A stretch of 64,000 nt of DNA from an uncultured Bacilli bacterium (GTDB lineage Bacteria > Bacillota_I > Bacilli_A > RF39 > UBA660), in contig CANQQV010000001.1 of assembly GCA_947626095.1 (NCBI GenBank), forward strand, positions 32,001-96,000, in the 5' to 3' direction. The translations under genes were made by a program, and so were the position numbers. This document shows, piece by piece, positions 9,265 through 22,090 of this stretch. Position 1 is the stretch's first letter, and every line of letters starts with the position of its first letter. The notes below the pieces were generated by a model. That model was not told the DNA's origin and searched no databases. It saw only the letters and a program-made list of their open reading frames with translations.

Positions 9265-10248
9265 ATGGGTGTTATAACAAAAAGACAATTAACAGCTTTA
9301 CTAACTGGCACTTTAATAGCTGCTAATACTTTTTCTATGTCTACTCACTACTCTAATCTACATCTTAAAAACGCTTACCAATTAACTTCAACAACTGTAT
9401 ATGCTTCATCATATGATTATGCAAACTATCAAGATTTAATGACTGAAACTAACATTCAAGTTCCAATCTATAATGCCATGGTTCCTCAAGGTTTAACCAA
9501 AGTAAACGACAACTTTCTAATGAGTTCATATGATTATAGCAAAACAAGTCCATCAACTATCTATATATATGATAATAATGGCAATCTAGTAAATGAATGT
9601 CCTTTAGATAATAAATCTCATGTTGGTGGTATTTCATACGATCAAAAAAATGATTTAATATGGGTTGCAAGTAGTAGCGGCTATATTAATTCCTATCCAT
9701 GTTCTTCTATCTTCAATTCTTCACAAGAGACTAAATACCAAAATACTTTTAATGTTGGTGAAGGATGTAAAAATTATATTTATCCATGGAAAAATGCCAT
9801 ATCATATTTATCTGTTGATAACAATTATCTATACGTAGGTAGTTTCTCTTTATATAAAAATGGCTTAGTAAAAAAATATTTGATCGAAAACAAAGATGGT
9901 GATATTAATTTATCTTTAGTTAATACTTTTAAAGTTCCAACTAAAGTTCAAGGTTTAACTATCTATCATAAAAATGACCAAGACTACTTAATCCTTAGTC
10001 GATCTTTTGGTGAAAATAATCCATCTATTCTACAAATATATAAATATCAGGAAGACATAGATGATTATACTAATCCTCAAATAAAGAGCGTATGCTATAA
10101 AACAGATGCAATGATGGAACAAATAATTATCGATAACGACTATCTATATGCTGTATTTGAATCATCAGCTTATCCATATCGTTATAGTCCATCAAGCGCT
10201 GATCATCTTCAAAAAACCGATATGTCTTTAGTCTTACTACCTAAATAA
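9265..10248 (+). CDS. Secreted beta-propeller-like protein of unknown function
   Basis: Signal peptide; repeated blade motifs VPQGLT, SHVGGISYD, KVQGLTI; overlaps the LSR1 stop by 12 bp (convergent). Confidence 0.55.
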   Translation: MGVITKRQLTALLTGTLIAANTFSMSTHYSNLHLKNAYQLTSTTVYASSYDYANYQDLMTETNIQVPIYNAMVPQGLTKVNDNFLMSSYDYSKTSPSTIYIYDNNGNLVNECPLDNKSHVGGISYDQKNDLIWVASSSGYINSYPCSSIFNSSQETKYQNTFNVGEGCKNYIYPWKNAISYLSVDNNYLYVGSFSLYKNGLVKKYLIENKDGDINLSLVNTFKVPTKVQGLTIYHKNDQDYLILSRSFGENNPSILQIYKYQEDIDDYTNPQIKSVCYKTDAMMEQIIIDNDYLYAVFESSAYPYRYSPSSADHLQKTDMSLVLLPK

Positions 10249-11859
10249 TACCTTTACTTCATAATATACTATATATCTTTTAGTTCCCTTAGTATCAAAT
10301 CCTCTTTTAAATTCATAATTATCATTCACTTGTTTATTAAAATAATTTAAATAAATATCTAATATTATTTTACTATCTACTTTATCTACTTCTATTCTCT
10401 TAAGTAATAAACTAATTACATTCTCTAAAATATTATCTATCTTAACTTTAGCTTCTATTACTTCTTTTAATTTAATAATACTTCTATCTTCTTTATTTAA
10501 CTCATCTATCTTTTGTTCTAATAACTTTACCTTTTCATTAAATTCATTATTTTTCTTTTTAAATTCTCTATCACTTATAAGCTCATTTATCTTTAAATCT
10601 AACAACTTATCTTTCTTTATATTTATTCTATTTATTTCCTTTAATATGTCTTTATCTTTCTTACTATCTCTATTTAACTCTTTATAATAATTAACTAAGA
10701 TACTAACAACTTCTTTTAAATTAATATCTAACTTTTTTATTATATCTTTAAATATATAATTAAGTTCTGACTCTCTTATATTAGCTGAATCACAATATTC
10801 TTTACCATATCTTAAATATTCCGAACAAACCCAAGTAACATCTTTATTACTACATCTAAATATTCGCCGATAATATAAAGTCTTATGCTTCTTACAATAT
10901 ATCTTCGAACTATATAAATATTTATTATGATAACTATTTATCTTTTTCTTTCTTGCTTCTAATCTTTGATTAGCTATCTCCCATAACTTATCATCAATAA
11001 TTGGTGGTATTTTTTCTTTGTCTTCATACATTATCCATTCATCTTTTTTAAAGTATTTAATTCTTTTTGTCATATAATCTTCTACTTCTATTTTTTTTCC
11101 ACAATAAAAACCTTTATACTTAGGATTTTCTATCATTCTTGAAATAGTAGCTACTGACCACTTACTACCTTCTCTAGATAATATCTTATCTCTATTTAAT
11201 CTTTTACCTATTTCTGATAATGATAACTTATCTACCACATACCATTCAAATATCTTTCTTACTACTTTAGCTTCTTCATTTATAATAACTAACTTCTTTG
11301 TATTCTTATCTTTTCTATAACCATATAATAAATTATTACCTAGTATTTCTCCTCTTAAAATAGCTCTATTCATCCCAAACTTAACTCTTTCTGATAATCT
11401 TCTTATTTCATCCTGTGCCATTGAAGCCATTATTGTAAGTCTTAATTCTGCATCCGGTAAAGCCGTATTAATATTATCATTAAGAAATAAAACAGCTACC
11501 CCATAAGAAAGTAATTCTCTTGTATATTTAATACTATCTAAGGTATTTCTAGAAAACCTCGATATTTCTTTAGTAACTATTAAATCAAATTTATTCTTTT
11601 TAGCATCTTCTATCATTTTCATAAAGTTATCTCTTTTAATATCACTAGTTCCCGTAATACCTTCATCAATATATCCTGGTATATAAGTCCAATTAGGATT
11701 ATCTTTAATCATTTCTTCAAAATGTTCTTTTTGATTTATTAATGACTTCTTCTGTTCTATATGATTAGTTGAAACTCTCACATAATCAGTTACTCTTAAT
11801 TTAATATTAGTAAGTGAAACTCCCATACTTAATTCTTTACGTACTTGATATAAATCCAT
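10237..11859 (-). CDS. Large serine recombinase LSR1 (resolvase + recombinase + Zn-ribbon + coiled coil; SpoIVCA/CisA-like architecture)
   Basis: YVRVST catalytic Ser, DEGITGT, KEISRFSRN, AQDEIRRLSERVKFG, LYGY, IENPKYKG, PPIID, CxxH...C Zn ribbon. Confidence 0.95.
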   Translation of the reverse strand: MDLYQVRKELSMGVSLTNIKLRVTDYVRVSTNHIEQKKSLINQKEHFEEMIKDNPNWTYIPGYIDEGITGTSDIKRDNFMKMIEDAKKNKFDLIVTKEISRFSRNTLDSIKYTRELLSYGVAVLFLNDNINTALPDAELRLTIMASMAQDEIRRLSERVKFGMNRAILRGEILGNNLLYGYRKDKNTKKLVIINEEAKVVRKIFEWYVVDKLSLSEIGKRLNRDKILSREGSKWSVATISRMIENPKYKGFYCGKKIEVEDYMTKRIKYFKKDEWIMYEDKEKIPPIIDDKLWEIANQRLEARKKKINSYHNKYLYSSKIYCKKHKTLYYRRIFRCSNKDVTWVCSEYLRYGKEYCDSANIRESELNYIFKDIIKKLDINLKEVVSILVNYYKELNRDSKKDKDILKEINRINIKKDKLLDLKINELISDREFKKKNNEFNEKVKLLEQKIDELNKEDRSIIKLKEVIEAKVKIDNILENVISLLLKRIEVDKVDSKIILDIYLNYFNKQVNDNYEFKRGFDTKGTKRYIVYYEVKVLFR

Positions 11860-11987
11860 TATTCTTTTCCTAACTCCCCAAGTATTTTATTTTCAACTAT
11901 TTTATAATCTTGATAATTTATCATTCCATCTGTGTATAACTCTCTATTTATTAACAAAGCTATTTCTAAATATAATCTATTATTCAC
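11859..11987 (-). CDS. 42-aa small ORF coupled to LSR1 (SHOCT-like; candidate recombination directionality/accessory factor)
   Basis: GTG start at 11987 after an AAGTGA RBS-like motif: MNNRLYLEIALLINRELYTDGMINYQDYKIVENKILGELGKE*. Its TAA overlaps the LSR1 ATG (TAATG). Below the ORF-track size cutoff. Confidence 0.65.
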   Translation of the reverse strand: MNNRLYLEIALLINRELYTDGMINYQDYKIVENKILGELGKE

Positions 11988-12055
11988 AATTCATCACTTA
12001 CTTAAAGCTATGAATAATAACCATTATTTAGTACTTTCTTACTCTTACATTAAGT

Positions 12056-20958: not shown

Positions 20959-20973
20959 TGTCTTTACTACTTT

Positions 20974-20986
20974 CAAAGAGTTGCTT
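20974..20986 (+). repeat. Right attachment core (attR) CAAAGAGTTGCTT
   Basis: Identical to 12864-12876; followed by TAATCAGAACACTAGCT (L-I-R-T-L-A). Confidence 0.9.
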
Positions 20987-21315
20987 TAATCAGAACACTA
21001 GCTATTAAACCTGATATTCTTCTTTTAGACGAACCATTTTCCGCTTTAGATTTTCCAACTAGTCTCGAAGTAAGTAATGATGTCTATAAAATAATTAAAA
21101 ATGAAAAGAAAACTGCTATTATGGTTACTCATGATATTGCATCAGCCATTAGTATGGCTGATAAGATAATTGTCTTAAGTAAAAGTCCAGCGATAATTAA
21201 AAATATCTATGATATAAACTTAGATAATAAAGATATTCCTACCACTAATCGTCAGGATAATAAATTTAATTACTATTATGATTTAATATGGAAAGATCTT
21301 GATAACATTGTCTAA
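20974..21315 (+). CDS. 3' half of the split NitT/TauT ABC ATPase (YtlC-like)
   Basis: QRVALIRTLAIKPDILLLDEPFSALD (Walker B and D-loop) ... MVTHD (H-loop); in frame with the track ORF 21121..21315. Confidence 0.92.
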   Translation, partial: QRVALIRTLAIKPDILLLDEPFSALDFPTSLEVSNDVYKIIKNEKKTAIMVTHDIASAISMADKIIVLSKSPAIIKNIYDINLDNKDIPTTNRQDNKFNYYYDLIWKDLDNIV

Positions 21316-22090
21316 AGAACAAAAAGCTTTTTTAAAAAAGTATCATCAAAATAAAAGAATTATTCTTTTAATCCAAATTATCATTATTCTTCTTTTCCTT
21401 ATTATATGGGAACTACTAAGTAAATACGGTATTATTAATTCTTTTATTTTTAGTCGCCCATCTAAAGTAATTAAAACTATCTATGATTTATATCTTAAAC
21501 ATCAATTATTTAATCATATCGGTATTACTATTTATGAAACATTAATAGCTTTTATTATTAGTTTACTAATCAGTATTATTCTTTCTATACTATTATATCT
21601 ATATCATAACTTTTACAAAGTAATGGACCCATTCTTAACATGTTTTAATTCCTTACCAAAAGTAGCACTAGGTCCCATGATTATTATTATAGTTGGTGCT
21701 AATATTAAAAGTATTATTGTTACAGCTATTTTAATAAATGTTATGGTTAGTACCATTGTTATTACTAATGGCTTTTATAATACTGATAAAACTAAGTTAA
21801 AACTTATGTTATCTCTAAAAGCTAATAAGTATCAAATTCTTAAATACTTAGTAATACCTAGTTCTTATAAAATTATTATCTCTTCCTTCAAATTAGGGAT
21901 AAGTATGAGTTTAATTGGTGTTGTAACTGGGGAATTCTTAGTTAGTCGTGCTGGCTTAGGTTACTTAATTATATATGGTACTCAAGTTTTTAACTTAGAT
22001 CTTGTAATTAGTGGTATTTTACTTCTCATTATCATCTCTTATATTCTATATAAATTAATTGAATTACTCGAAAAAAAATTATTAAGTTAG
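21299..22090 (+). CDS. NitT/TauT ABC transporter permease (YtlD-like)
   Basis: LIIWELL..FIFSRPS, NSLPKVALGP, GVVTGEFLVSRAGLGYLI; multiple TMs; start may be the TTG at 21308. Confidence 0.9.
   Translation: MITLSKEQKAFLKKYHQNKRIILLIQIIIILLFLIIWELLSKYGIINSFIFSRPSKVIKTIYDLYLKHQLFNHIGITIYETLIAFIISLLISIILSILLYLYHNFYKVMDPFLTCFNSLPKVALGPMIIIIVGANIKSIIVTAILINVMVSTIVITNGFYNTDKTKLKLMLSLKANKYQILKYLVIPSSYKIIISSFKLGISMSLIGVVTGEFLVSRAGLGYLIIYGTQVFNLDLVISGILLLIIISYILYKLIELLEKKLLS

Follow-up and report, generated by a model that had tools for sequence, protein, structure and literature searches.

The question raised by this locus is why two genes of a single transporter operon, each broken by an element that carries its own large serine recombinase (LSR), have remained open and conserved. 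The operon encodes a NitT/TauT-type substrate-binding protein (SBP), an ATPase, and a permease, and most of it lies in the window, the 64,000-nucleotide stretch of an uncultured Bacilli bacterium analyzed here (G000:C1:32001-96000, where G000 is the source genome and C1 the contig). G000 is a 1.6-Mb metagenome-assembled genome of 34 contigs, and the G+C content at the region is ~27%. A preliminary description proposed that the operon is interrupted twice and rebuilt by programmed DNA rearrangement. We conclude that the operon with its two elements, designated E1 (in the SBP gene) and E2 (in the ATPase gene), probably represents a new case, involving several sites, of sporulation-type gene-intervening elements.

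Searches with Pfam and NCBIfam assigned the three NitT/TauT-type genes to one operon, and Pfam together with tblastn confirmed the proposed order SBP, ATPase, permease on the plus strand. The breaks were mapped by tblastn against G000 with the proteins of a relative, G008, in which the three genes are contiguous (339, 249, and 260 amino acids). Residues 5-205 of the G008 SBP matched C1 23219-23806 and residues 201-339 matched C1 44044-44460, whereas residues 1-140 and 137-249 of the ATPase matched C1 44456-44875 and C1 52974-53312, respectively, and the permease gave one single match. Both the SBP gene and the ATPase gene are thus broken, as had been described. The two halves of the SBP gene had been placed within 10237-22090, however, and this holds only for the C-terminal half (approximately 12055-12463); the N-terminal half lies outside the window altogether, at G000:C1:23228-23818, 8.2 kb ahead of its start. 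A whole-genome profile search with PF09084 also gave an N-terminal SBP match, at C1:23363-23794. Given this position, E1 spans 20,252 bp, ten times the ~1.9 kb implied by the coordinates first proposed for it. The open reading frame (ORF) at 9265-10248, to the left of the E1 recombinase, was considered as a piece of the SBP gene and rejected; it is part of the E1 cargo and has no Pfam or NCBIfam match. The features of the operon and of the recombination apparatus, in window coordinates, are as follows.

-8192 to 12059 (C1 23808-44059), no strand: E1, 20,252 bp, breaks the SBP gene at about residue 205
10237-11859, minus strand: LSR1, 540 amino acids, right end of E1 (Resolvase, Recombinase, and Zn_ribbon_recom; Pfam)
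11859-11987, minus strand: 42-amino acid ORF, candidate recombination directionality factor, one-base overlap with the LSR1 start
12055-12059, plus strand: core TGAAC of the right attachment site (attR) of E1 (junction comparison)
12055-12463, plus strand: SBP C-terminal fragment (NMT1/SsuA-like), residues ~205-339 of the intact protein (Pfam, tblastn)
12131-12463, plus strand: 110-amino acid ORF, C-terminal end of an NMT1-type binding protein (Pfam)
12456-12876, plus strand: ATPase N-terminal fragment, residues 1-140 (Pfam, tblastn)
12864-12876, plus strand: core CAAAGAGTTGCTT of the left attachment site (attL) of E2, 13-bp direct repeat (junction comparison)
12877-20986, no strand: E2, 8,110 bp, breaks the ATPase gene at about residue 140
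19359-19460, plus strand: 33-amino acid ORF, second candidate accessory factor, 8-base overlap with the LSR2 start
19453-20958, plus strand: LSR2, 501 amino acids, right end of E2 (Resolvase, Recombinase, and Zn_ribbon_recom; Pfam)
20974-20986, plus strand: E2 attR core CAAAGAGTTGCTT, 13-bp direct repeat (junction comparison)
20974-21315, plus strand: ATPase C-terminal fragment, residues ~137-249 (tblastn)
21121-21315, plus strand: 64-amino acid ORF within the ATPase C-terminal region (ORF of the Pfam scan)
21299-22090, plus strand: permease, intact (BPD_transp_1; Pfam)

The attL core of E1 consists of the same five bases, TGAAC, at C1 23803-23807. When the flanking fragments were joined in a script at the shared cores, an SBP of 327 amino acids and an ATPase of 249 amino acids were obtained, both free of stop codons; the former aligned end to end with the G008 SBP at 81% identity, and the latter aligned with residues 1-249 of the G008 ATPase without gaps at 77% identity. 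The ATPase N-terminal fragment stops just past the LSGGMKQRVA signature, with its stop codon supplied by E2, and the corresponding 140-amino acid ORF (12456-12878) holds the first 118 of the 137 positions of ABC_tran (Pfam). The absence of stops and frameshifts from the fragments, noted at the outset for this locus, was confirmed in G000 and found also in the 18 genus genomes examined. No intact second copy of the operon was detected in G000 by tblastn, there being no second SBP and no other ATPase above 39% identity.

The two recombinases are distinct and intact, as had been claimed, and are only 23% identical to each other. All members of the LSR1 family have R28, S30, and T31, and the zinc ribbon of LSR1 corresponds to residues 315-372 (Pfam). 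The tiny coupled ORF described before each recombinase was likewise borne out: both overlap the LSR start and are conserved at the protein level. The 42-amino acid ORF has a standard start codon in seven of the eight SBP-site elements and is discernible in the eighth, with I13, N14, I23, and Y25 invariant; for the 33-amino acid ORF, the peptide pattern EIINYKL..II..ME is recognizable ahead of the LSR2 homologues of G005, G010, and G018 and, more weakly, of G019. Structure prediction for LSR1 with the 42-amino acid ORF gave complex scores of 0.62, 0.62, and 0.60, compared with 0.00 for the best of three controls; for calibration, 0.62 was attained in 58 of 80 solved complexes, and mismatched pairs attained it in 2 of 110 cases, counts that apply here only roughly because custom alignments were used for the prediction. 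Contacts agreed between runs to at least 89%, the partner had a predicted local distance difference test (pLDDT) value of at least 77, and the contacts on LSR1 fell at residues 379-395, 464-485, and 505-507, just past the zinc ribbon. The 42-amino acid protein is therefore predicted to bind the LSR1 coiled-coil, a putative region that we placed from its position and from the modeled LSR1 interface. Inspection of attP by eye showed perfect 9-bp arms around GA in the elements of G013 and G004.

Recurrence and age of the insertions

The genus sample comprised 27 genomes, with the SBP gene present in 21. The operon is interrupted in 14 of these 21, and more than once in 7, by inserts ranging from 3.2 to 20 kb. 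Interruptions occur at the following sites, numbered by residue.

SBP ~205: nine genomes (G000, G005, G010, G014, G004, G013, G003, G007, G042)
SBP ~155: one genome (G042)
ATPase ~140: eight genomes (G000, G005, G010, G018, G019, G006, and, as an attL-type junction followed by the contig end, G042 and G007)
Permease ~205: three genomes (G022, G019, G012)
Permease ~112: one genome (G012)

The double interruption of one operon that was proposed from the window is upheld by this survey, with G000, G005, G010, G007, and G042 all carrying both insertions. Six of the 21 genomes (G008, G023, G001, G024, G017, and G002) have an uninterrupted operon, and G009 is ambiguous, with a contig break at ATPase residue ~90; the status of G017, G002, and G009 was read from match coordinates only, and the selection analysis and the tree described below cover the other 18. 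Of 28 SBP-positive genomes from the family's other genera, four are likewise interrupted, at the two SBP positions listed above. Given that both G000 breakpoints, together with their junctions, recur in independent assemblies of other species, they are not the product of chance.

The recombinases group by site, with the LSR1 family at SBP ~205, the LSR2 family at ATPase ~140, and shorter zinc-ribbon serine recombinases at the permease sites. Identity is 50-73% between LSR1 and its counterparts at that SBP site in seven other species, and 54-72% between LSR2 and its counterparts at the same ATPase site in G005, G010, G018, and G019. Of the 81 matches to the Recombinase domain found across the genus, at least 15 fall in this 2.5-kb operon, among them all such matches of G005, G010, G018, and G003 and two of the three in G000.

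The fragments are under purifying selection rather than evolving neutrally. Ratios of nonsynonymous to synonymous substitution rates (dN/dS) for pairs among G000, G005, and G010 were 0.097-0.113 for the SBP and 0.096-0.125 for the ATPase. Median values were 0.158 for 36 split pairs versus 0.185 for 36 intact pairs in the case of the SBP, and 0.161 for 15 split pairs versus 0.207 for 45 intact pairs in the case of the ATPase; LSR1 itself gave 0.12-0.36 (28 pairs). Neutral simulation at 0.3 substitutions per site yielded a mean of 10-12 stops per gene, with 0 of 2000 replicates remaining open. Within the G000/G005/G010 trio, synonymous divergence (dS) was 0.63-0.66 for LSR1 and 0.57-0.67 for the host operon; between G000 and G042 it was 1.10 and 1.15, respectively. 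This match argues for long shared vertical descent of LSR1 and its host operon. In a tree built on the operon proteins themselves, the trio is a single clade (support of 99), and, by these comparisons, the E1 and E2 insertions look old.

Promoter motif and link to sporulation

Sporulation machinery was found in G000, in agreement with the sporulation-type setting first suggested for the locus: Spo0A (Spo0A_C, 114.5 bits), SpoIVA (345.9 bits), and sigK- and sigE-like genes (290 and 244 bits with TIGR02846), the latter two uninterrupted. By gene presence the host would thus be an endospore former. The assignment of Bacillus subtilis ytlA, ytlC, and ytlD to the sigma-K genes, on which the preliminary description relied, agrees with PMC3416734, which lists all three in the sigma-K regulon and among the core sporulation genes. 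The operon resembles ytlA-ytlC-ytlD in consisting of a NitT/TauT-type SBP, an ATPase, and a permease in the same order (PMC3416734, PMC11466899). No NCBIfam equivalog was matched by the operon proteins, the only match being SsuA_fam at 47.7 bits (cut-off, 163.5), and the B. subtilis counterparts were absent among the best 120 homologous proteins (close relatives only) and the 80 related loci returned. In B. subtilis an extra gene, ytlB, lies between ytlA and ytlC.

A motif of the form AC-N16/17-[CA]ATAnnnTA is located 47-55 nt upstream of the SBP start in each of the 14 genus loci whose upstream sequence was available, the other three having none. Sigma-K promoters of Clostridioides difficile have AC at -35 and CATATAAT as the -10 box (PMC3789822). 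The motif is also present in 11 of 12 loci of other genera with SBP first in the operon, most of them with the canonical CATATAATA, and in none of six loci with SBP after the permease. It precedes 21 of 1379 G000 ORFs of at least 120 amino acids, and it was found in 37 of 60 loci from further species versus 44 of 2718 control windows; the 60 loci remained from 80 after removal of 18 whose match did not start at position 3001 and of two split copies already counted.

Another 20 ORFs of G000 bear the motif, and three of the nine scanned belong to spore-typical families, namely CotZ, Hydrolase_2, and LysM. Each of these has the motif within 80 nt of its start, and they are candidate members of the sigma-K regulon.

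Window 45286-45735, minus strand: LysM protein
G000:C7:48837-49277: CotZ-family spore coat protein
G000:C30:7597-8028: SleB/CwlJ-type hydrolase

The region upstream of sigK was considered as further support and dropped, since it contains CATATTAT and a AATATAAT box and lacks AC at the right spacing. As a separate observation, the loci of family f15 (L051-L053, from G070, G056, and G038) carry the motif farther from the SBP start (~70 nt instead of ~50 nt), and a conserved stretch after it, gaccga...tcgg, might fold into a hairpin.

The operon is distributed with Spo0A. In a sample of 300 genomes of the class, the SBP was found in 68 genomes besides G000, 67 of which were also positive for Spo0A_C, the two lists having been compared by eye and the counts taken irrespective of kinship. 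The sole exception, G304, has an SBP match at 25% identity. In families of mixed status, SBP and Spo0A were found in 9 and 10 of 18 genomes (f10), in 2 and 2 of 5 (f25), and in 2 and 3 of 6 (f4), respectively, and in f8 the one positive among 30 was the same genome for both. The link thus recurs in at least four mixed-status families (f4, f8, f10, and f25).

Cargo of the elements

The Pfam scan covered all ORFs of at least 90 amino acids in E1 and E2 save a 349-amino acid ORF across the window start, and PHROGs was applied to 10 ORFs. No phage structural, packaging, or lysis families were found in E1 or E2 with Pfam and PHROGs, the PHROGs matches being of repressor type only and confined to a helix-turn-helix (HTH) gene; E1 and E2 are therefore non-phage islands. 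Transfer genes did not turn up in these scans either. The cargo of E1, amounting to ~14 genes, several of them without assigned function, and that of E2 include the following.

293-2395, minus strand: DUF2207 protein, E1 (Pfam)
2580-3587, minus strand: HTH regulator, E1 (Pfam; PHROGs repressor-type families)
3690-6197, minus strand: 835-amino acid protein without assigned family, E1 (Pfam scan)
6347-9187, plus strand: protein with NlpC/P60 and Listeria-Bacteroides repeat, E1 (Pfam)
9265-10248, plus strand: 327-amino acid protein without family match, E1 (Pfam and NCBIfam scans)
L003 9834-11393, left end of E1: ABC-2 transporter pair, compared with L028 15203-16759 of G010
L003 12137-16168 and 16877-17149, E1: 1343-amino acid ADP-ribosyltransferase-domain protein and WXG100 region (Pfam)
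12918-13922, minus strand: 334-amino acid low-complexity membrane-anchored surface protein, E2 (Pfam scan)
13919-19180, minus strand: 1753-amino acid M60-like peptidase with fn3 and F5/8 type C domains, E2 (Pfam)

The part of E1 ahead of the window thus carries the ABC-2 transporter pair, the 1343-amino acid protein, whose ADP-ribosyltransferase domain is C-terminal, and WXG100 genes; two other E1 genes, the HTH gene and that for the 327-amino acid protein, are shared with the elements of G005 and G010. A 3.2-kb element of G013, inserted at the SBP position of E1, carries a 264-amino acid ADP-ribosyltransferase gene and a WXG100-like gene (L023 1646-2440 and 898-1224, respectively). Because E1 and the G013 element both carry genes of these two kinds, a toxin module of type VII style appears to recur as cargo at this site.

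E2 is syntenic throughout with the elements of G005 and G010. All three of its genes are shared at 61-72% identity, the two cargo genes at 61-68%. The M60-like (enhancin-type) peptidase has been kept as E2 cargo in three species (68% identity), and its domain content fits a mucin- or glycoprotein-degrading role in the gut. The ATPase- and permease-site elements of G018 (L032/L019) and G022 (L022) carry a RhuM/Fic protein, an AAA_15/AbiEii-type ATPase, and an M20 peptidase, cargo that, judged by these families, is defense-like and accessory. Elsewhere in G000, on contig C28, a third LSR (527 amino acids; L042 783-2366) lies 200 nt after a 145-amino acid ORF with collagen triple-helix repeats (L042 141-578), near the contig end; this ORF may belong to a further spore-surface gene, of the BclA type, that has been interrupted.

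Mechanism, alternatives, and known systems

Both E1 and E2 lie inside host coding sequence, removal of either restores one reading frame, and each has a serine recombinase near its end and a core shared by its two junctions, as do sporulation-type intervening elements (skin, SPbeta, vfbin, gin, and yin). We infer excision itself, its confinement to the mother cell, and the role of the transporter as follows. E1 and E2 would be two non-phage gene-intervening elements of the kind found in sigK (skin), spsM (SPbeta), and gerE (gin), and their host operon a late-sporulation importer of the NitT/TauT type, similar to ytlACD. In growing cells and the forespore the operon would stay broken and the islands would be inherited, with an ABC-2 transporter, an M60 peptidase, and a toxin cluster resembling type VII among their cargo. 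Once in the terminal mother cell, attL would be recombined with attR by the LSR of the respective element, with the small protein encoded upstream of that LSR as directionality factor, at the core TGAAC with a probable GA crossover for E1 and at the 13-bp core CAAAGAGTTGCTT for E2, and each island would leave as a circle. The sigma-K-type promoter before the SBP start would then give a full SBP-ATPase-permease message only after both excisions. The AND gate suggested in the preliminary description is a logical consequence of two independent excisions rather than an observation.

Several results weigh against this interpretation. The locus was found in five public runs of two studies (four from one and one, with a small share, from the other), all as low-depth contigs and with no RNA run listed, and four of these runs were mapped to window positions 11000-22500 at a depth of ~4-50. 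No excised or circular junction was seen, and none among the 15 joints listed fits a joint from 12876 to 20987, low-depth contigs being uninformative on excision either way; the sides of the listed joints are 20-33 nt of AT-rich sequence, and there are at least 13 more joints and at least 486 more loose ends. The -10 sequence of the genus is AATATA rather than the canonical CATATA and contains a sigma-A-like TATAAT, and a looser genome-wide motif scan gave mostly extended -10 sites (TGnTATAAT) and ordinary genes. A clear sporulation promoter was not found ahead of either LSR operon: AC-N18-CATA upstream of these operons is kept only in G000, G005, and G010, and a loosened pattern matches many places. 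Three Spo0A-positive families are without SBP (f6, 0 of 10; f23, 0 of 6; f29, 0 of 7), and the operon is therefore not needed for sporulation in general. In the trio, LSR2 has a dS of 0.85-1.04, exceeding the host-operon values of 0.61-0.73 by a factor of 1.2-1.5, which makes vertical descent less clean for E2 than for E1. The cargo of E1 is mostly unique to G000, and its ABC-2 permease/ATPase pair is 95-96% identical to that of the G010 element, compared with 64-86% for the other shared genes; the cassette, as this suggests, was exchanged recently between species, and there has therefore been some horizontal flux. The inverted-repeat symmetry of attP in G000, in ungapped comparison, is not above background (10 of 16 for E1, P = 0.29; 8 of 16 for E2, P = 0.92), and the score of the predicted LSR1 complex may be due in part to likeness to the solved SprA-SprB structures in PDB. 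In addition, G000 is a metagenome assembly, 91% complete and with 7.9% estimated contamination.

Some of these points favor another explanation, in which E1 and E2 are ordinary integrative islands; their LSRs would use conserved att sequences in a dispensable transporter operon, carriers would be without the transporter, and excision would be rare and for transfer only. Toxin, defense, and peptidase genes are typical island cargo, this cargo turns over, as seen for the ABC-2 pair, and the failure to see an excision junction, if only in low-depth contigs, is in keeping with rare excision. The operon can moreover be lost, given that it is uninterrupted in 6 of the 21 genus genomes and that 6 of 27 are without an SBP match. 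We nevertheless consider this explanation unlikely. The fragments are open with dN/dS of ~0.10 while LSR1 has diverged at the synonymous rate of the host operon; under neutral decay, about 10-12 stops would be expected in each gene; at least three lineages of LSR have come to target the same 2.5-kb operon, at five sites; and the Pfam and PHROGs scans of E1 and E2 revealed no transfer genes.

A reversible switch in growing cells, by active lysogeny or phase variation, with excision and re-integration in response to a cue other than sporulation, appears to us distinctly improbable. LSRs can work in both directions depending on the directionality factor, as described for GirC and GirX (PMC5595907), and excision of the element yin is growth-phase dependent and heterogeneous within the population (PMC10747680). 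The small ORF is translationally coupled to the LSR in the present elements, however, so that both would be made together, which favors excision only; sporulation is indicated by the promoter of sigma-K type and by the link with Spo0A; and genes for replication or maintenance of an excised circle were not visible in the Pfam scans of E1 and E2. Finally, C1 might be a chimera of host genome and foreign DNA that arose in assembly or binning, a concern for any metagenome-assembled genome with such a contamination estimate. This can hardly be the explanation, given that the interrupted architecture is present with orthologous elements in the independent assemblies of G005 and G010 and in 11 other species, and that separate public contigs, from runs that possibly represent the source sample of G000, bridge the E1 attR, E2 attL, and E2 attR junctions without differences.

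Excision from a sporulation operon thus remains our preferred reading, one that appears well supported comparatively and is unproven at the bench. A broader version of it, which we put forward tentatively and would ourselves lean slightly against, is that the operon serves as a dedicated, multi-slot safe harbor in the whole family of these small-genome spore-forming gut Bacilli. At least five LSR lineages would each have co-evolved with its own site in one 2.5-kb sigma-K operon, with up to three islands (toxins, defense genes, or mucinase-like peptidase) carried free of cost in the germ line and all deleted in the mother cell; the small ORF-LSR module would be domesticated and excision-only, and the operon would act as a multi-input AND gate on late spore maturation.

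If the preferred reading is true, a transporter operon joins the few sporulation genes known to be restored through programmed excision of DNA, one operon bears two or three independent locks, an arrangement so far described only for heterocyst nif genes, and the phenomenon extends to uncultured small-genome gut Bacilli, which are labeled Bacilli or Tenericutes in public records. As a resource, the elements supply several LSRs, each paired with a small factor and orthogonal to the others, whose att sites are defined and which are of interest for use as excision tools. Whether or not excision takes place, ytlACD-like transporters gain a testable link to late spore maturation from the conservation of the sigma-K-type promoter and from their confinement to genomes positive for Spo0A.

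In skin and SPbeta, an LSR-bearing element splits a mother-cell gene, directionality factor-aided excision restores the gene in the mother cell only, and the forespore retains the element. These elements are found in sigK of B. subtilis and C. difficile and in spsM, respectively (PMC5025042, PMC4191935, PMC5499854), and resemble E1 and E2 in that an LSR-bearing element splits a gene. They differ in being prophage-derived, whereas no phage genes were found in E1 and E2; moreover, sigK is uninterrupted in G000, and LSR2 is only distantly similar to SprA (E = 2e-12). The closest known match is gin, a non-phage island in gerE, a mother-cell gene of the sigma-K period, in Bacillus cereus ATCC10987, which is excised by the LSR GirC with GirX, a 42-amino acid directionality factor without known motif (PMC5595907). 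Gin shares with the present elements its non-phage nature, the combination of an LSR with, in E1, a 42-amino acid candidate factor, and a short core common to both junctions. It is, on the other hand, one element in one gene of a cultured Bacillus, with excision shown by experiment, whereas E1 and E2 are known from sequence alone; their target is an ABC transporter operon with two to three elements per operon and at least five sites across the genus, and their small ORF overlaps the LSR start.

The idea that one operon can bear several locks is not new in biology, the precedent being the nif genes of heterocyst-forming cyanobacteria (PMC11249958). Interruption elements are present there in nif, fdxN, and hupL, and nifBHDK of Calothrix is divided into 13 parts (PMC11249958, PMC4874684). 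As in the present operon, several elements reside in one gene cluster, in that case all being removed in a terminally differentiated cell before function, and one of the recombinases, XisF, is an LSR. The phylum and the cell type are different, however, and the LSRs described here scored 92.5 and 85.2 bits with the NCBIfam equivalog for XisF, compared with a cut-off of 375. The literature, the supplementary survey tables of the Abe papers aside and as far as its accessible portions go, yielded no report of ytlA, ytlC, ytlD, or any ABC transporter as the target of an intervening element, in line with the statement to that effect in the preliminary description, and the transporter operon is absent from the known-target lists in the available parts of PMC10747680 and PMC5595907. 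The differences from known intervening elements are the transporter target, the several sites with simultaneous elements, the overlapping small ORF, and the other host group.

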